Shown: positions 1,723-34,965, counted from the first letter of the whole stretch. The stretch is DNA of 63,478 nucleotides, filler included, from an uncultured bacterium (GCA_964506785.1; 17 parts of 17 records of this genome joined end to end with filler, not necessarily neighbours in it), one strand, 5' to 3'. Numbers and translations: made by a program. The notes: a model not told the origin generated them from the letters alone.

Positions 1723-3387
1723 ATGCAAGAGTACAAACAGGATGTTCATCTTAATGATTACCTGCGGGTAATTAAGAACCGTAAGAATTTGATAATTGTA
1801 TTTTCTTTTATCAGCGTTCTGGTGGTAACCGTTTATAGTTTTATGGTTGAGCCAGTTTACCGGGCAACGGCCACTTTATTAATCGATTTAGAGAGCCCCC
1901 ATGTTTTGACGACAACCGGCTCGGTTGCTTTAGAAACAACACATTATGATGCCTATCGCGAGTATTTTCAGAGCCAGAAAGAAATAATTAAAAGCCGGGG
2001 TATTATTCATCAGGTGTTCGATGAATTTAAGCTTGATGAAAAAAAAGAATACCGTGAGTCCAAGGACCCGGTAAAAAAATTCCTTAAGACAATTAAGGTC
2101 GAACCTATCAGGGATACGAGGTTGCTTCAGCTTCATGTTGAGAATAAAGACCCGAAGCTTGCTGCAGCTTTTGCTAACCGGATTGCCGAGATATATATTA
2201 TCCATAACCTTTCCTATATTACAAAAAGTGAAATCACCAATCTCCTAAAAAATGAATACTTAAGACTGCAGACAAAATTATCAGAATACACCAAGATTTA
2301 TAAAGCTAAACATCCCAAAATGCTCCGCCTTAAGCAAGAGATGGATCAGATTGCTTCCAGAATTCAAGCGGAAAAAGAGCGAGTGGGCAATTTCAGTAAG
2401 ACAGCTTCCCGTACTTTAAGTTTAGATGATTCGTCCTCGGTTCTTACCGTCGGTCTTAAAGCTAACAATATTTCTATTCAGGACCGGGCGGTGGTGCCCA
2501 TACTGCCGGTGAGGCCGAAAAAACGTTCTAATATTCTCCTTTCGATGATTATCAGTCTTTTCGCCGGGATAGGCCTGGCTTTTTTCTTTGAATATCTGGA
2601 TGATACCGTAAAGGGGGCAGAGGAGGTCGAGCGATTAGTGAAATGGCCGGTTTTGGGAAGTGTACCCAAAATCGATTGTTCGGAAAATGGGTTTGGTAAT
2701 TCTGAGAGGGCCAAGCCGGAACTTTTTATTCAGATGAATCCGCAAAATCCAATATCCGAAGCTTACCGGGCAATAAGGACCAGTGTGCTTTTTTCATCTA
2801 CCGAGGAACACCCCATAAAAAGTTTTCTGGTTACCAGTCCCGGCCCCCAGGAAGGGAAAACAACCAGTCTTTGCAACCTGGCGATAACCATGGCCCATAG
2901 CCAGAATCAGGTGCTTATGGTCGAAGCGGATATGCGTAAACCACGCCTTGATAAAATATTCGAAACGAAAAAAGATATCGGATTAAGCAGTTTTCTTTCC
3001 GGACAGGCGAAGCCTGGCGATTTAATCCAGAAAACGAAAATAGAGAATCTATCTTTAGTTAGCGGTGGACCGCCGCCGCCAAACCCATCAGAATTATTAG
3101 CCAGCCGTAAAACAAAGGAATTTATTGATACGGTTAGGAAGAAATTTGATTTTATCTTATTTGATACCCCACCAATGGCAGTCGTGACCGATGCCGTTAT
3201 CCTTTCTCAAGCCGTAGATGGCACCATTATTGTCTTAGAAAGCGGCAAGACCAACAGAAGAATGCTCAAGCGTATTAATCAGATGTTAAAAGAGGCCAAA
3301 GGTAGAATTATTGGGGCAATTCTTAATAAGATTTCCCTTAGTGACGATAGCTATTATTACTACTCTTATTACTCTGAGAAAAAATAA
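1723..3387 (+). CDS. wzc: Polysaccharide co-polymerase / BY-kinase (Wzc/GumC-like)
   Basis: Two TM segments, Walker A GPQEGKTT, ILFDTPP, C-terminal Tyr cluster SYYYYSYY. Confidence 0.9.
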   Translation: MQEYKQDVHLNDYLRVIKNRKNLIIVFSFISVLVVTVYSFMVEPVYRATATLLIDLESPHVLTTTGSVALETTHYDAYREYFQSQKEIIKSRGIIHQVFDEFKLDEKKEYRESKDPVKKFLKTIKVEPIRDTRLLQLHVENKDPKLAAAFANRIAEIYIIHNLSYITKSEITNLLKNEYLRLQTKLSEYTKIYKAKHPKMLRLKQEMDQIASRIQAEKERVGNFSKTASRTLSLDDSSSVLTVGLKANNISIQDRAVVPILPVRPKKRSNILLSMIISLFAGIGLAFFFEYLDDTVKGAEEVERLVKWPVLGSVPKIDCSENGFGNSERAKPELFIQMNPQNPISEAYRAIRTSVLFSSTEEHPIKSFLVTSPGPQEGKTTSLCNLAITMAHSQNQVLMVEADMRKPRLDKIFETKKDIGLSSFLSGQAKPGDLIQKTKIENLSLVSGGPPPPNPSELLASRKTKEFIDTVRKKFDFILFDTPPMAVVTDAVILSQAVDGTIIVLESGKTNRRMLKRINQMLKEAKGRIIGAILNKISLSDDSYYYYSYYSEKK

Positions 3388-3522: not shown

Positions 3523-4624
3523 ATGCCAAAGCATAAAAATAAATATAAAGTTAAAGATTTATTGGAAAAGGGGAAAATGATTTACCGAGAAATGCCGGTT
3601 TATATCCGCTGGATTTTTCTTCCTCTTAAATTGATAGTAAAGTCTATCCGCAAGGTCTTTAATTTTATCGATACTATAAAATTGGACCTTTGGATTATAG
3701 CCGGGGAAGAGGCCTCCACTAAAGAAGAGCTTGCGGTTATCTATGCGGGTAGAGAAAAAAACAAGAATTATATAGCTAAATTGGCTTTTAACGGACTTTA
3801 TAACGAAAGATTTATTTCAAAAATCTGGGTATGGAAAATTAAGAGTGAGGCGAAACGAAAAGAGCGAGATTGTCCTTTATTGGTTGTTGAAGCACCGAAA
3901 TTTTGCCGCCGATTATTTCAAAAAGAAAACTTTTTCTATATTCCTTCCTGGATTTCGGGAGAGGTAGATATTTTCGCTGATATTTCTCTAATATGTAAAG
4001 ACGGAAGTCTTAAATCGGACCTGCGCAGGATAAGAAGAAATAAACTGGCTTTCGAAGTAAGCAATAATCTTTCGCAGTTTAAAGAATTTTACTTTGATAT
4101 GTACCTTCCATATATTACTAACTCACACGGTGATAGGGCGATAGTAACGGGATACGACTCCATGAAGGAAAAGTTTAAAGAGTGTGATTTGTTTTTGGTG
4201 AAAAATGGAGTCGAATTTATATCAGGCGGTTTGATTGCCTATGATAAAAATAAGGTTAGTCTCTGGCATGCCGGTGTCAGAGACGGCGCTAGAGACTATA
4301 TTAACGATGGGGCGGTAGCTGCTTTATATTATTTTTCGGTTCTTTACCTGAAAGAAAGAGGATATAAAAAGCTGAATTTCGGGCTATCACGGCCTTTTTT
4401 AAAGGATGGTGTGCTGCAGTATAAAAGAAAATGGAAGATTCGTATTATAAAATCACCTGAGGCAGGTATTTTTATTAAACCTTTAGTCCAAACAGGCGGA
4501 GTAAAGGGATTTTTTTTGAATAACCCTTTTATCTATTTGGATAAAGAAAACTTAAAGGCGGCGCTCTTCATAGAAGAAGGAAAAATTCTATCGAAAGAAG
4601 ATTTTGAAAAAATCTATAAAGATT
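3523..4624 (+). CDS. Hypothetical protein with GNAT/FemAB-like C-terminal domain (3' partial)
   Basis: LNFGLSRPFLKDGVLQYKRKW resembles the acyltransferase-fold motif common in EPS loci; runs into linker. Confidence 0.55.
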
Positions 4625-9321: not shown

Positions 9322-9421
9322 NNNNNNNNNNNNNNNNNNNNNNNNNNNNNNNNNNNNNNNNNNNNTTAATTAATTAANNNNNNNNNNNNNNNNNNNNNNN
9401 NNNNNNNNNNNNNNNNNNNNN

Positions 9422-31151: not shown

Positions 31152-31480
31152 TTTTAATCTACTTTAAATCAGAAATAAGTTTATTGCCACTTGCTATCAA
31201 CCTAGTTAGAAATAGGTATAGTAAAATTAAACCATAGGTTTTAAAAGCCGAAAAAACACTCAAAAGGCCTTCTTGAAATATGGTAAAACGCAAAGAACTA
31301 CATTTAGATAATATAAGAAGAACTGCACCTAACAATAATAAAACCTCCAGCTTTTNNNNNNNNNNNNNNNNNNNNNNNNNNNNNNNNNNNNNNNNNNNNT
31401 TAATTAATTAANNNNNNNNNNNNNNNNNNNNNNNNNNNNNNNNNNNNNNNNNNNNGTTGACTAAGAAACACAGCACTCCC

Positions 31481-31562
31481 CTCTGCGCCCCACCTAATGT
31501 GAAACGCGGTGTCCTCGAGGGGTAGGCTCGCTCTCAGACTCGCTCCTTGAGCAAACTGCTAA
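31481..31562 (+). repeat. Structured array repeat core, copy R1
   Basis: CTCTGC..CCTAATG..GCGGT..CTCGAGGGG..AGACTCG-CTCCTTGAG-CAAACTGCTAA. Confidence 0.85.
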
Positions 31563-31657
31563 AAGGAAAAAAATTAAAAAAATTTGAAAGAATCTTTTTA
31601 ATTTTTGTGTCTCTAAGTATGTAAGGGGCACGATATGAAACCAAAAAAGGAGGGAAA

Positions 31658-32197
31658 ATGGACAAAAAGAAGAAAACTACGGTAACGGGTTTAATCCCCC
31701 AAGAGACTATTGAAAGTAAAATTCTCTTACTTAGAGGACAAAAGGTCATGTTAGACAGAGATCTAGCAAAGCTATATAAAGTACCCACCAAGAGGCTTAA
31801 TGAACAGGTTAAAAGGAATAAGGGGCGATTCCCGGAGGATTTTATGTTTCAATTGACGAAAAATGAGAAAAATGAACTGGTCGCAAATTGCGACCGGTTT
31901 AACCCCCTTAAACACTCTACTGTACTGCCTTATGCTTTTACAGAACATGGGGCATTAATGTTAGCCAACGTAATCAAAAGCTCTACTGCAATAGCGGTTA
32001 GTATTCTGATTGTCCGTGCATTTATCAGGCTAAGAGAAGTCATCAGAAACCACAAAGATCTTCGAAGAAAAATTGAAGATATGGAGAGGAAATATGACGG
32101 ACAATTTAAAATCGTTTTTACAGCCATTAAGAAACTGATGGAAACACCAGAAGTGAAACCAAAAGTGATACAGGATTTCAACCCTCGTAAAGACTAA
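31658..32197 (+). CDS. ORF6N domain DNA-binding protein
   Basis: LRGQKVMLDRDLAKLY, VKRNKGRFPEDFMFQL, PYAFTEHG. Confidence 0.92.
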   Translation: MDKKKKTTVTGLIPQETIESKILLLRGQKVMLDRDLAKLYKVPTKRLNEQVKRNKGRFPEDFMFQLTKNEKNELVANCDRFNPLKHSTVLPYAFTEHGALMLANVIKSSTAIAVSILIVRAFIRLREVIRNHKDLRRKIEDMERKYDGQFKIVFTAIKKLMETPEVKPKVIQDFNPRKD

Positions 32198-32213
32198 AGC
32201 ACACAGCACTGTA

Positions 32214-32479
32214 CTCTGCATTAACCTAATGGCGAAGCCGCGGTCCTGAGGGGTACGTGAGCTACTAGACTCGCCCTCAGCAAACCGCTAATAAAAACGA
32301 GGCGAGCTAATACAATCAACCTAAAACAAAAAGAAGCAAAAAAAACACTTAAAGCTGCTTATGTTACTGAATAAACTATCGTTATATGTGATTAAGACCT
32401 TTTGCACCTTAATCACTAGTATGGGTATAAAAAAAGAGCTTAAGACGGGGGCTTAAGCTCTATGTGAGGCATATGTTTA
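32214..32479 (+). repeat. Array repeat copy R2 (core 32214-32291 plus extension shared with R3)
   Basis: Aligns with R1/R3/R4 cores; 32344-32404 is identical to 33465-33525. Confidence 0.9.
32429..32461 (-). terminator. Intrinsic terminator downstream of the TA pair
   Basis: Minus strand AGAGCTTAAG-N7-CTTAAGCTCT followed by T-run. Confidence 0.75.
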
Positions 32480-32512
32480 AAGTGGGGTTACTCTAAATAT
32501 AAGTATAGTAGT

Positions 32513-32806
32513 TTAAGGATGTGGTGTTATTGCCAAAACTGTTATTTGTTTTCTCTGCGGACCATAATACCAAAAAATACGATAAGCTGCTGGGGTATTT
32601 TGCTCAGCATATGCCTCAAAAACTTTCTCTCCATTTGGTCCACTAAGGCTATAAAAAGGATGTGTCTGAAGGCTGGGGTGTCGTGGATCTTGCGCTAAGT
32701 ACTTGAGTGTTTTTTTAGCTGCGTTGTGTCTCTTCTTAAGACTTTTATTCTTCTTTAAGGAATTAAGGTTTTGCTCTGCCTCGATTGTAAGCAGTATTTT
32801 GAACAA
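32513..32806 (-). CDS. RelE/ParE-like toxin
   Basis: 97 aa basic protein, DPRHPSLQTH, AYRIFWYYG, ITVLAITPHP; downstream of small partner. Confidence 0.75.
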   Translation of the reverse strand: MFKILLTIEAEQNLNSLKKNKSLKKRHNAAKKTLKYLAQDPRHPSLQTHPFYSLSGPNGEKVFEAYAEQNTPAAYRIFWYYGPQRKQITVLAITPHP

Positions 32807-32821
32807 ATTTCTCTCCTATAG

Positions 32822-33115
32822 TTAATCCAAGGATTTTAAATCTAATTCAGAAACCTTACCCTTACCCGCTTGTTCCAATCCCTTTCTTACCGAAGCTAGA
32901 GCTTTCTTGTTTTTATATAACCATGCTTCTGATGCGGGAATCTCTACCATGGGCCGAATTAAAATTTCTCCTTGTAGATTTATATAAACTTTTACTCTTT
33001 TGACCTCAGGTAAGTTCTGAAGTGCACCTAAAACAATCCTATTCCTCTGATCAATAGTCTTAGATTCAATTTCTTCAAAATCATCTTCTATATGTATTTT
33101 TTTAGTCTTACTCAT
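32822..33115 (-). CDS. Putative antitoxin (AbrB-like N-terminus)
   Basis: TIDQRNRIVLG swapped-hairpin-like motif, EAWLYKN..ASVRKGLEQA tail; strong RBS before ATG 33115. Confidence 0.7.
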   Translation of the reverse strand: MSKTKKIHIEDDFEEIESKTIDQRNRIVLGALQNLPEVKRVKVYINLQGEILIRPMVEIPASEAWLYKNKKALASVRKGLEQAGKGKVSELDLKSLD

Positions 33116-33140
33116 TTCCTCCTCCTTAACTTCCATTTAA

Positions 33141-33186
33141 ATTATATCATATTCCCCATTTTTTGTCAAATGGGAATTTCCCATTT
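33141..33186 (-). promoter_or_regulatory. Consensus sigma70 promoter with palindromic operator
   Basis: TTGACA (33169-33164)-N17-TATAAT (33146-33141); AAATGGGAA-T-TTCCCATTT palindrome abutting -35. Confidence 0.8.
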
Positions 33187-33289
33187 GTACCATATCCTTT
33201 ATGTATTATAGCATATATTTATACATTATCAACTTTTTTACTAATTTGCCCATAAACACCTAAAAACACTAAAAACAGCACAAAATTCC

Positions 33290-33675
33290 CAAGAAACCCC
33301 ACTCCCCCACCCTAAACACCCCTAAAAAAACACATAATCCCCCCTCTGCATTAACCTAATGTTGAAAACGCGGTCCTGAGGGGTAGGCTTCTCTTAGACT
33401 CGCTCCTTGAGCAAACCGCTAATAAAAAATTAGCGAGCTAATACAATCAACCTAAAAACAAAGTAACACTTAAAGCTGCTTATGTTACTGAATAAACTAT
33501 CGTTATATGTGATTAAGACCTTTTGGGCTTGATCACTATATAGGGGATAAAAAAAGAGCTTAAGACGGGGGCTTCCGCCTTCGCCAATCTATTTCTATAT
33601 TATCTGGCTTCGGCGGACTGCCGACAAACTTTACCCCAAAAGTCGTAAGCTCTATATATGTGGGGTATATGTTTA
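33290..33675 (+). repeat. Array repeat copy R3 (C-rich leader, core 33344-33422, extension)
   Basis: Shares leader with R4, core with all copies, extension with R2; carries a 72-bp insertion at 33574-33645. Confidence 0.9.
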
Positions 33676-33689
33676 TTGCGATACAGAAC

Positions 33690-34376
33690 TTATTTATTAG
33701 TTAGGATGTCTATAATATCTAACTCATCAATTAGTTTCAGATTATCTAAGACTTTTTTCTGCCATTTTTTATGCATTTTTTTGAAGATTTTGTGTATCTG
33801 TAAATGTTGGTTCTCTCTTATCATTTCATGAAATACACGCAAAGCCCCTTCAATATCCCTATCCTTTTTATCTTTTTTTCTTCTCCGTTCGAAAATAATA
33901 AGTTTATGCAATGCATATGCTGCCGGATGAGGCAATCTTATACGCAAATTATTAACGTTTAAAAATATAGAATTCTGAACAAGAAAATCTAAAAATCTTA
34001 AAGGTTGCGCATTAATACTCAACTGTGCTATTGGATACGGCTTATCATGCCCCCTTCCCCGTTCTGGCACCAGAAATTCAACCGTTAAATCAGGATGGAA
34101 TAATTTAATATAACCTTACGATCCTTTAAATTCTTCAATAAATCCCAAATCTTCTAGGAGTTCAAAAACATTGATTTTCTTATTAAATTTTGGAGGCAGT
34201 GGAACTACAAAATCAATATCTCTCGTACGAATAAAAGTAGAATACTCGCGAGATTTGAATAGATATTTATAAAAATAAATGCTCCAGCTACCAACTAGAA
34301 CAATTTTATTAAGTATTTGAGCCTTTTCGAACCTTCTAAGCACTTTTAAGCATAAATCAAACGTCTTCTTTTCCAT
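33690..34376 (-). pseudogene. Nucleotidyltransferase-fold protein interrupted by one in-frame TAA
   Basis: VLVGSWS..RTRDIDF (GS..DxD motif); both ORFs are in the same frame across TAA 34116-34118 (FKGS*GYIKLFHPDLTVEFLVPERG); ALHKLII. Confidence 0.8.
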
Positions 34377-34677
34377 GTAGGGATTTTTCCAGAAACTTTA
34401 TTTGTTTATTCAGTTTAACAATATTATCTTTATACTTTTTCCTTAATCGCTTTTGTTTTTTTAATTCAGCAAGAAAATCCTTTGATAACACCTTCCCCTT
34501 ATAGATAAACTTTACCTTTTTCCCGTCTCTAATGGCGAGATAATAATACGAATGCCCCTTAATTATCTTCTTAACGATGCAACCACCTGGATTAGCTTTT
34601 AAAGCTTTCTCATAGCCCTGTTTGATCTTCTTGGAATTTTCCAATTCCTCTCTAAGCACACCTTTAATCATCCCCAT
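34357..34677 (-). CDS. Small basic putative DNA-binding protein
   Basis: GCIVKKIIKGHSYYYLAIRDGKKVKFIYKG beta-rich core between coiled coils; overlaps the NTase start. Confidence 0.75.
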   Translation of the reverse strand: MGMIKGVLREELENSKKIKQGYEKALKANPGGCIVKKIIKGHSYYYLAIRDGKKVKFIYKGKVLSKDFLAELKKQKRLRKKYKDNIVKLNKQIKFLEKSLHGKEDV

Positions 34678-34696
34678 AATCAGCCCCTAAGTTCCT

Positions 34697-34799
34697 GTTA
34701 CCAAACATAATTCTAATATAAGTATACTTAGTTTGGTAACAATTGTCAAGAATTTGTTACCAAACTAATTTCTTAAAATTTAAATCTATGTTTGGTAAA
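34697..34799 (-). promoter_or_regulatory. Sigma70 promoter embedded in four 10-bp operator boxes
   Basis: TTGACA (34749-34744)-N17-TATACT; GTTACCAAAC-N24-GTTTGGTAA(C) occurs twice. Confidence 0.8.
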
Positions 34800-34861
34800 T
34801 GGTGCGGAACACCCGATAAAAACCTAAAACATTTGCAACTTACATAACAATCCCAAATACA

Positions 34862-34965
34862 CAAGAAATCCCACTCCCGTACCAAAACACCCCCTAAAAA
34901 CACATAATTCCCCTCTGCGTTAATCTAATGGCGAAGCCGCGGTCCTGAGAGAAAGGTAGGCTTCT
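34862..34965 (+). repeat. Array repeat copy R4 (truncated by contig end)
   Basis: C-rich leader then CTCTGCGTTAATCTAATGGCGAAGCCGCGGTCCTGAG. Confidence 0.85.

Follow-up and report, generated by a model that had tools for sequence, protein, structure and literature searches.

A one-strand repeat array separates unrelated toxin-antitoxin and defence-type genes in an uncultured bacterium

The DNA examined here contains part of a cassette-like array, at least 13.9 kb long, in which direct repeats, all in a single orientation, separate unrelated genes; the junctions between units are mosaic, and one near-identical sister contig carries a different left neighbour. The locus is tentatively read, with somewhat less than even confidence, as a repeat-scaffolded, integron-like exchange array that is not an integron and that would be served by a putative enzyme. 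The window (the whole stretch of DNA analysed, 63,478 bases) consists of 18 small contigs with N spacers between them. A covariance model of the repeat gave exactly four matches in the window, every one in the contig at 31456-34965 and 0 in the other 17 contigs. The features of this contig are listed below, L002 being the longer metagenome contig described further on.

31456..34965, no strand assigned: whole contig, 3,510 bases, both ends at N-spacer boundaries
31466..31562, plus strand: repeat R1; right side ends early, after GCTAA; left hairpin at about 31468-31525
31577..31593, plus strand: upstream module AAAAAATTTGAAAGAAT of ORF6N-a; 5 one-strand copies in L002 against 0.12 expected
31658..32197, plus strand: ORF6N-a, 179 aa; Pfam ORF6N, 2.8e-33; PADLOC PDC-S05, 2.1e-59
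32199..32339, plus strand: repeat R2, full length (left hairpin, second domain, tail); covariance model 146.5 bits
32340..32461, minus strand: extension common to R2 and R3, R2 side; hairpin and intrinsic terminator (32435-32461) of the minus-strand operon
32513..32806, minus strand: RelE/ParE-like toxin candidate, 97 aa; nearest Atlas clusters named RelE/ParE
32822..33136, minus strand: antitoxin candidate, upstream partner of the RelE-like gene, from the ORF list
33169-33141, minus strand: promoter of the RelE-like unit, TTGACA-17-TATAAT; 12/12, with TG
33274..33332, plus strand: C-rich leader of R3; G-rich on the minus strand
33328..33470, plus strand: repeat R3, full length; covariance model 156.6 bits
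33471..33581, minus strand: extension common to R2 and R3, R3 side; degenerate terminator (33562-33581)
33690..34376, minus strand: NTP_transf_8 nucleotidyltransferase gene; Pfam match on both halves; 228-codon frame
34357..34677, minus strand: partner of the nucleotidyltransferase, 106 aa
34749-34721, minus strand: promoter match of the nucleotidyltransferase unit, TTGACA-17-TATACT; 11/12
34846..34904, plus strand: C-rich leader of R4, shared with the leader of R3
34898..34965, plus strand: repeat R4, interrupted by the contig end; complete in L002

The four direct copies of a core of about 80 bp reported in the preliminary description were confirmed by alignment, with start-to-start spacings of 732/733, 1130 and 1569. 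An 18-base core pattern had 3 matches against 0.20 expected, a count reached in 0 of 100 shuffles, and the covariance-model match of R1 extends over 31466-31586 (52.5 bits). Junctions are ordered as C-rich leader, imperfect hairpin of about 60 nt, second domain with tail, and a common terminator serving minus-strand units, the repeat unit itself being made of two different structured domains. The pairwise sharing of flanks described earlier was also recovered: R1 and R2 both have GACTAA..CACAGCACT, R3 and R4 share the C-rich leader (59 nt, 75%), and R2 and R3 have about 190 further bases in common (segments of 97%, 86% and 87%).

The contig was matched to positions 13803-10294 of L002, an 18-kb metagenome contig, at 99.97% (99.972%) identity over 3,510 bases. 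Nine repeat copies, all on one strand, were found in 13.9 kb of L002, which bears out the earlier suggestion that the array continues beyond the contig. The repeats separate a minimum of four intact ORF6N paralogs from RelE/ParE-like, BrnA-type, HigBA-type and PIN units; a P-type ATPase and a nucleotidyltransferase pair are also among the cargo, and unit size ranges over 0.65-4.8 kb. L003, the sister contig, represents the same locus (99.97% identity over 3,071 bases), and its left neighbour departs from that of L002 at the edge of the upstream module. Both contig ends had been placed in repeat sequence; this holds for the right end, in R4, but the left end coincides with the point at which contigs of runs X3 and X5 run into the end of an IS3-family element. 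The IS3 element in the sister contig was the sole recombinase-type gene found in the readable DNA, and it is apparently a separate insertion.

An exact pattern of 21 specified bases fits 7 of the 9 copies in L002 and matched 3 of 241 million metagenome records, L003 again being the L002 locus. One further copy, in L001, lies outside the array. The pattern had 0 matches in GTDB species genomes and 0 in the plasmid collection, and two related patterns had 0 in viral contigs. Within the DNA searched, the repeats are arrayed rather than dispersed, as originally described, with 9 of the 10 known copies in one array. Repeats of the REP/BIME and MITE types are likewise short, structured and intergenic, but identification with such a dispersed family was rejected, the array copies being neither scattered nor in both orientations, having no terminal inverted-repeat pair joining unit ends, and comprising two different structured domains instead of a single GTAG-headed palindrome.

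The cargo assignments made at first sight were largely upheld. ORF6N-a, encoded on the plus strand between repeats, has 51-57% protein identity to three L002 paralogs and belongs to a candidate single-gene defence family. The module AAAAAATTTGAAAGAAT upstream of it may be a promoter; this plus-strand site is absent from the promoter-scan list. The minus-strand RelE-like pair was retained as a candidate pair: the 97-aa protein had a feature score of 0.98 and TM of 0.97-0.98 against the RelE/ParE Atlas clusters, with no sequence match in Pfam, NCBIfam or PDB, and no family match was found for the ORF at 32822..33136. Since the listed start of this ORF overlaps the promoter, its true start, as read from the sequence, is probably near 33116. 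For the small protein and nucleotidyltransferase pair, also on the minus strand, the family was supported by Pfam, but the gene proved to be a single frame broken by one in-frame TAA at 34116-34118 (read-through translation). Translated comparison (tblastx) with L071 gave 44% over 160 codons spanning this break. The 106-aa partner had no known family in profile searches; by eye, a similar 114-aa ORF adjoins the homologous nucleotidyltransferase gene in L071. That each minus-strand unit has its own promoter agrees with the consensus matches at 33169-33141 and 34749-34721. Terminator and upstream modules occur around unrelated genes, with 4 and 5 copies, respectively, in L002.

The left hairpin is the only part of the repeat present in 10/10 copies, and it is under selection for pairing. 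Across 14 proposed pairs, in a structure that rests on about 1.4 effective sequences and whose register is uncertain, 92.1% of 140 cells were paired, and the covariation score was reached in 0 of 500 shuffles. Two pairs show changes on both sides, in 5 cells (GGC/GCC, GTT/AAC, GGT/ACC), and by reading the sequence the stem of R1 is shorter by one pair on each side. These results support an imperfect hairpin whose tip covaries. As single-stranded DNA, the repeat has unremarkable fold energies on either strand (z -0.33 to -1.58).

Junction cores are more conserved (66-88% DNA identity) than the ORF6N paralogs are as proteins, and the cores most alike are not neighbours in the array (R7-R9, R2-R8 and R3-R7). 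Simple tandem duplication was rejected, as successive units belong to different families and the ORF6N paralogs are no closer than the range given above. Similarity between junctions extends to about 330 bases; its end follows GGGGTAG, GCTAA or the full tail, or falls inside the leader without the core, and these several end points count against one precise crossover. Repeat segments assort with more than one breakpoint, a pattern for which homologous exchange or gene conversion is no worse an explanation than a precise crossover.

The site-specific capture or shuffling of cassettes proposed in the preliminary description was not supported in that form: no evidence of site-specific recombination was obtained, and no circles or empty sites were seen in the contigs of four runs compared with L002. 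Nor was permuted order seen: the window contig has its genes in the order of L002, as does L003 across the 3 kb it shares with L002. Contig breaks fall at the repeats in 4/4 runs, 20-36% of the compared contigs continuing into unlike sequence, and in 4/4 runs the repeat adjoins sequences absent from L002. Further paralogous copies account for these joints, except that the one skip of 1,121 bases, in X5, is explained by an assembly path that ran through 61 shared bases.

Under the exchange reading, two junction copies would recombine to excise a unit as a circle with one hybrid junction, and the circle could then recombine with any junction of the array to insert the unit. Repeated excision and insertion at junctions would make the junctions mosaic and flank each unit with direct repeats. 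Circles, enzyme and direction of events are all postulated. Two routes are weighted about evenly within this reading, namely homologous recombination over the 60-330 bases shared by junctions, and a dedicated hairpin-recognising recombinase encoded elsewhere. A more specific version, which we consider unlikely, is a non-integron gene-capture system of an uncultured small-genome lineage, in which a recombinase encoded elsewhere would recognise the hairpin of about 60 nt lacking AAC/GTT triplets, cassettes would be expression-ready with a standard upstream module or terminator, and other Omnitrophota, for example G003, would have lineage-specific repeat families of their own in this role. In this second genome, strings of ORF6N, HigBA-like and homologous nucleotidyltransferase-pair genes lie between copies of a different repeat, in arrays analogous to that of L002, which speaks for the exchange reading. 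Part of the G003 repeat also occurs among ordinary-looking genes in both orientations, and these copies count against the exchange reading.

In the main alternative, the repeats would be passive junction elements of an ordinary toxin-antitoxin and defence island, either members of an intergenic family or a conserved module with a regulatory or insulating function (structured RNA, terminator, leader set), kept alike by gene conversion and with no part in cargo movement. This we regard as possible though doubtful. It accommodates the variable similarity breakpoints and mosaic pattern, the common modules being expression signals, the G-U type pairs found on the plus strand only (as would fit an RNA transcribed in the direction of ORF6N), the G003 repeat pieces among ordinary-looking genes, and run contigs in which mobility was not seen. 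It is less easily reconciled with the confinement of nearly all known copies to one strand of one array and their absence from the other window contigs, with the changed neighbour at the module edge in L003, and with the unlike sequences beside the repeat in every run. A further alternative makes the ORF6N module itself mobile (upstream module, ORF6N gene and hairpin core), the core being a cis site or 3' element and gene-less copies being derivatives left among other genes. At least five ORF6N genes or gene ends lie in the 13.9 kb, an ORF6N stop codon immediately precedes 4 of 9 repeats and an ORF6N-x remnant precedes R1, left-neighbour joints fall at four or more different points in an insertion-like manner, and local direct repeats often enclose ORF6N homologs in other phyla (L038, L045, L050, L066, L071, L077). 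Yet some such enclosing repeats are only what is left of the ends of tandem paralogs (L008, L077), the 77 homologs with at least 60 bases downstream have no following element in common, and the repeat profile matches 0 of 80 loci; moreover, 4 of the 9 array repeats (R3, R4, R8 and R9) and the L001 copy are preceded by the C-rich leader rather than an ORF6N gene. ORF6N is a DNA-binding domain for which, to our knowledge, no strand-transfer activity has been described, and ORF6N-module mobility is decidedly unlikely.

Tandem accretion of small integrase-less elements at an attachment site within an unrecognised small RNA gene, with the integrase elsewhere, is less probable still. SCC composite islands, CIMEs and Xer-dependent IMEX strings, like strings at tRNA genes, carry direct repeats around unrelated units; in SCC, CIME and IMEX accretion the repeats regenerate at each insertion and many units have no recombinase of their own. 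The one-orientation repeats around every unit, the compensatory changes (as in structured-RNA gene copies from different donors), and a fixed left edge with a variable other side (50, 87 and at least 115 bases), which is the pattern of nested att duplications, would suit such accretion. Here, however, the repeat belongs to no recognisable gene and the units are much smaller; wobble pairing points to the plus strand, whereas the nested-copy geometry needs a gene on the minus strand; and no integrase was seen in the DNA examined, which includes neither array end. The repeat as a piece of a tRNA, tmRNA or Rfam small-RNA gene was rejected: ARAGORN found 0 genes in L001-L003, and the Rfam search suggested earlier gave no relevant match on the contig (E up to 10) or on L001 and L002 (E up to 1). 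The absence of a recombinase from the contig, noted from the outset, was extended to the window and the readable DNA of L001-L003, where no Xer-type recombinase was found with Pfam and an ad hoc profile of limited reach. Arrangement as pdif/Xer modules was likewise rejected, all copies being direct rather than alternating, with no 11-6-11 imperfect palindrome by eye. Very improbable, finally, is a canonical integron cassette array without its integrase (CALIN), with attC sites so divergent that the eye misses them. In the text available from Cury et al. (2016, PMC4889954), attC sites consist of complementary R'' and R' boxes with conserved AAC and GTT triplets, and CALINs, attC clusters with no integrase nearby, are common. 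CALINs and sedentary chromosomal integrons resemble this locus in their one-orientation arrays of structured 60-140-nt repeats, in unrelated small units that include small ORFs and toxin-antitoxin pairs driven by promoters of their own, and in repeats that resemble each other more than the genes do. The attC hairpin is imperfect, with an unpaired central spacer, extrahelical bases and a variable terminal structure; the imperfect hairpin with a variable tip seen here is a point in favour, but its register is uncertain and its fold energies are ordinary. The search for candidate sites paired 7-mers that have AAC at their end with 7-mers headed by GTT, separated by 45-150 nt and complementary at 6/7 positions or more, against a background of 29 candidate pairs per strand in 13.9 kb. 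The triplets had been described as lacking; conserved paired boxes are indeed missing, but AAC and GTT do occur in some copies, and a box pair at the same place in the core is present in 2 of 9 (R2 and R3; 141-151 nt apart, 3-4 bp of inner pairing), on which grounds canonical attC was rejected. As read from the sequence, the best hairpin has GT on its 5' arm and AAC on its 3' arm, the reverse of attC. Similarity also runs far beyond attC size with variable ends, unrelated units share an upstream module and terminator, and 0 of 5 ORF6N-bearing Omnitrophota genomes had an integron integrase, a tyrosine recombinase with an additional domain of about 35 residues, above the NCBIfam TIGR02249 cut-off. 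Nor are the cassettes promoterless and co-oriented behind Pc, as integron cassettes mostly are: 5 of 8 L002 units oppose the ORF6N direction and both minus-strand units of the window have their own promoters. Toxin-antitoxin cassettes are a known exception to promoterless integron cassettes.

Variable islands bounded by repeats and exchanged through homologous recombination, with no dedicated enzyme, are a further parallel. In Neisseria, for example, the conserved flanks or repeats of minimal mobile elements and of dRS3/Correia-flanked regions act as homology arms for swaps of unrelated cargo, and the junctions are mosaic. The present array differs in that the homology arm is repeated nine times in tandem and carries a hairpin selected for pairing. 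If units do move at these junctions, the locus would be a cassette-exchange platform without the integron attC/IntI pair. Its lineage has received little study, and the accessory genes there are mostly toxin-antitoxin and defence modules. The common upstream and terminator modules around unrelated genes bear on a question of integron biology, the origin of standard cassette ends. Even with passive repeats, the locus would remain a clear case of a variable defence island built from repeats, and a warning that arrayed repeats with toxin-antitoxin cargo do not by themselves make an integron.

The window comes from a fragmented assembly and consists of 18 small contigs, with N...TTAATTAATTAA...N spacers at the joints, and the contig at 31456-34965 (3,510 bases, 36% G+C) is spanned in its entirety by the feature. 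Four direct repeat copies, as reported in the preliminary description, were recovered in this contig by alignment with start-to-start spacings of 732/733, 1130 and 1569, and their flanks are shared pairwise as described there. An 18-base core pattern gave 3 matches versus 0.20 expected, and a covariance model of the repeat matched this contig four times and no other part of the 63-kb window. The cargo is as follows.

Plus strand: ORF6N gene, ORF6N-a (Pfam ORF6N, 2.8e-33)
Minus strand, first unit: 97-aa protein with an upstream partner (nearest Atlas clusters named RelE/ParE), with an intrinsic terminator
Minus strand, second unit: 106-aa protein and NTP_transf_8 nucleotidyltransferase (Pfam), the latter at 33690-34376

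This agrees with the cargo first described (ORF6N, a RelE-like pair, a small protein with a nucleotidyltransferase), with one correction: the nucleotidyltransferase gene is a single 228-codon frame interrupted in frame by one TAA, at 34116-34118 (..EEFKGS*GYIKLF..); this codon is a nonsense mutation that has become fixed, or else a site of read-through. The same two ORFs are listed at this gene on L002, a metagenome contig that includes the window contig and differs from it by one base (99.97%). Near-perfect consensus promoter matches were found for both minus-strand units, each of which had been assigned its own promoter. In the stretch 33116-33169, the start listed for the 104-aa ORF is separated by 5 bases from the -10 hexamer of the ORF's perfect promoter; judged from the sequence, the ORF more likely starts at a later ATG near 33116, behind GGAGGAGG. 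In PADLOC, ORF6N-a matches the candidate defence family PDC-S05 at 2e-59; the 97-aa protein gave no sequence match in Pfam, NCBIfam or PDB, and searches of the unnamed proteins against PHROGs, PADLOC and NCBIfam returned nothing beyond PDC-S05 (ORF6N) and a single PHROG whose function is unknown. A 646-aa window protein has a best identity of 30-35% among 401 genomes, which is uninformative for host placement.

The exact core pattern (21 specified bases) had three matches among 241 million metagenome records, L001, L002 and L003, and 0 in 185,579 GTDB species genomes. L002 (13,923 bases of an 18,033-base contig) includes the window contig at 99.972% identity and carries nine repeat copies (R1-R9), all on one strand and at intervals of 0.65 to 4.8 kb; L003 represents this locus in a different sample. 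The preliminary observation is correct, and understated.

Units of the L002 array
ORF6N gene alone, two instances
RelE/ParE-like pair
Nucleotidyltransferase pair
CopG/BrnA-type pair fused with an ORF6N gene
928-aa P-type ATPase, 259-aa protein and ORF6N gene
PIN protein and SAM methyltransferase
Gp49(HigB)-HTH pair

The four ORF6N paralogs in the array are merely 51-57% identical, which excludes recent duplication. L001 (10815-14167 of a 34-kb metagenome contig) holds the tenth copy, the sole one found outside the array, with genes of unknown function and an HNH endonuclease gene as its neighbours. This copy has the leader, with a fragment of the terminator module (both described below) about 270 bases further on, and is flanked by a 618-aa protein without known family and by a 222-aa protein, after which comes an HNH_3 endonuclease gene.

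Read in the ORF6N direction, the full junction has four parts.

Part 1: left flank, formed by an ORF6N gene's 3' end or by a C-rich leader of ~60-75 nt that lies past the promoter of a minus-strand unit
Part 2: left hairpin, ~60 nt, ACACA..CCCCTCTGC..CTAATG-(tip)-CGCGGTCCTGAGGGGTAG
Part 3: second domain and tail, ending ..CAATCAACCTAAAAC..CTCCTAA
Part 4, minus-strand units: two small hairpins and a common intrinsic terminator, GAGCTTAAG-loop-CTTAAGCTC-T7

The terminator module has 4 exact occurrences and one degenerate copy. The plus-strand units (four ORF6N genes and HigB) have in common an upstream module, AAAAAWKTTGAAAGAAT, with 5 occurrences on one strand versus 0.12 expected. Only the left hairpin is kept in 10/10 copies; right limits vary (R6 stops after GGGGTAG, R1 after GCTAA), two ORF6N modules adjoin a truncated leader with the core entirely absent, and a further copy, on an assembled contig in three runs, has the full core and tail followed by the upstream module. 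On the minus strand, the leaders at 33274-33332 and 34846-34904 have runs in G3-5 blocks (GGGG..GGG..GGGGG..GGGG) and are, by sequence, G-quadruplex-capable.

In a 14-pair model of the left hairpin across ten copies, 92.1% of 140 cells pair, and its covariation score was reached by 0/500 shuffles. Two tip pairs vary on both sides (GGC-GAA-GCC, GTT-GAA-AAC, GGT-GTA-ACC), and the R1 tip stem is shorter by one pair on both sides. On the plus strand several of the pairs are U-G, where the other strand would give C-A. Counting against strong structure, three copies had folding energies within 0.3-1.6 sd of shuffles on either strand; the structure model is built on about 1.4 effective sequences, and the outer stem has an ambiguous register.

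Both contig ends had been placed in repeat sequence, which for the left end did not hold. To the right of the part shared with L002, L003 carries an IS3-family element (OrfA with HTH_Tnp_1 and OrfB with rve, L003 3155-4460), inserted in one sample directly after the HigB upstream module. The same IS3 end adjoins L002 position 13803 in sequencing runs X3 and X5, which is the exact start of the window contig, so the left end is an IS junction outside the array repeat. The element is thus polymorphic between populations, and its ordinary transposase is the sole recombinase seen near the array. That the contig itself carries no recombinase was borne out: an ad hoc profile of limited reach, built from the Xer-type recombinases of five Omnitrophota genomes with ORF6N loci, found nothing in the window or in L001-L003.

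The repeat was compared with known kinds of element. AAC/GTT boxes are given as the defining feature of attC (PMC4889954). A complementary AAC/GTT pair that begins in the core is present in 2/9 copies, its boxes 141-151 nt from each other, and the background is 29 such pairs per strand. In the clearest stem GT is in the 5' arm and AAC in the 3' arm, opposite to attC. The original exclusion of attC holds. In 0/5 of the Omnitrophota genomes does an integron integrase exceed the TIGR02249 cut-off. A true CALIN is very improbable. pdif modules were ruled out because all repeat copies are direct, and a dif-like reading of CACATAAT...GCGTTAAT was rejected by eye since ORF6N-type copies are without it and inner ATAA/TTAT symmetry is absent. 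A dispersed MITE or REP was ruled out (the copies are arrayed, on one strand, and absent from other window contigs), as was tandem duplication, and a mini-ORF in the core (MAKPRS) was rejected because it is not conserved in R1 or R9. Tandem accretion at an unrecognised RNA gene is improbable, the covariation of the left hairpin notwithstanding: tRNA and tmRNA searches found none, Rfam gave no matches on L001 and L002, and the window contig had no accepted family. With E up to 10 allowed, the sole Rfam match there, a weak one to sraA (31806-31908 inside ORF6N-a), scored 25.9 bits versus a gathering score of 56 and falls on a coding palindrome, and was rejected as chance. This near-perfect palindrome, of GGTCGCAAATTGCGACC type (31879-31895), also scored as a terminator-like site; longer forms of it are found in a gap between genes of the array (L002 about 9364-9394, reverse-complement 4530-4560) and directly 3' of ORF6N homologs in other phyla (L023, L057, L068, L075).

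An ORF6N-centred element is also unlikely, if a little less so. ORF6N homologs were found at 80 loci in many phyla (47-65% identity), and many are bracketed by local direct repeats; this array's repeat is absent from all 80 loci (repeat profile, 0 matches), and the 77 homologs for which 60 bases or more of sequence follow the gene have no element in common there. Our tentatively preferred reading is a repeat-scaffolded, integron-like exchange array, in which homologous recombination over the long shared junction and a hairpin-directed recombinase are equally likely. A passive junction or regulatory repeat is the next candidate, possible but not favored. Counted for movement, junction cores are 66-88% identical with the closest pairs non-adjacent, and junction segments assort separately (R3/R7 left and middle, R7/R9 middle and right, R2/R8 right). 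L003 and L002 agree at 99.97% identity over 3,071 bases; to the left of this shared part, at the upstream-module edge of the paralog ORF6N-c, L003 has 83 bases of another neighbour where L002 has the ATPase block. Unique segments are separate contigs ending at repeats in 4/4 runs, and 20-36% of contigs compared run on into sequence unlike L002. Counted against movement, gene order is identical wherever two assemblies overlap. Circles (a back-joint between neighbouring repeats) or empty sites were not listed; all runs compared are in the form of assembled contigs rather than reads, and rare forms do not show in contigs. Listed contig joints connect paralogous ORF6N, leader and module copies and are best read as further paralogous copies rather than rearrangements. 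A 1,121-base skip of the RelE unit, in 1/4 runs via a 61-base shared stretch, may be an assembly path. The site-specific recombination system first proposed is no more than possible, and the several different similarity end points speak against one precise crossover.

The repeat gave 0 and 0 matches in viral contigs with two looser patterns, and blastn against plasmids gave no match. The covariance model had 0 matches in 151 genomes of the phylum of G001, a single-cell Omnitrophota genome, a null that says little as no positive control genome exists. In main texts, a literature match for ORF6N together with integron was unrelated, and no paper on cassette arrays was among the matches listed for ORF6N. 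On G001 contig 14 (L050), an ORF6N gene is bracketed by 104-nt repeats (98% identical, 2366-2469 and 3166-3269) that contain an intrinsic terminator and of which fragments recur on four other contigs. Two contigs of another Omnitrophota genome, G003 (contigs 260 and 132; L071 and L092), carry same-strand strings of a different ~100-200-nt repeat, part of which occurs on a third contig in both orientations among ordinary-looking genes (identified by eye). The cargo of these strings includes two ORF6N genes, HigBA-like pairs, a small GIY-YIG gene, others, and a nucleotidyltransferase pair homologous to that of the window (tblastx, 44% over 160 codons). This kind of architecture is therefore found again, built on lineage-specific repeats.
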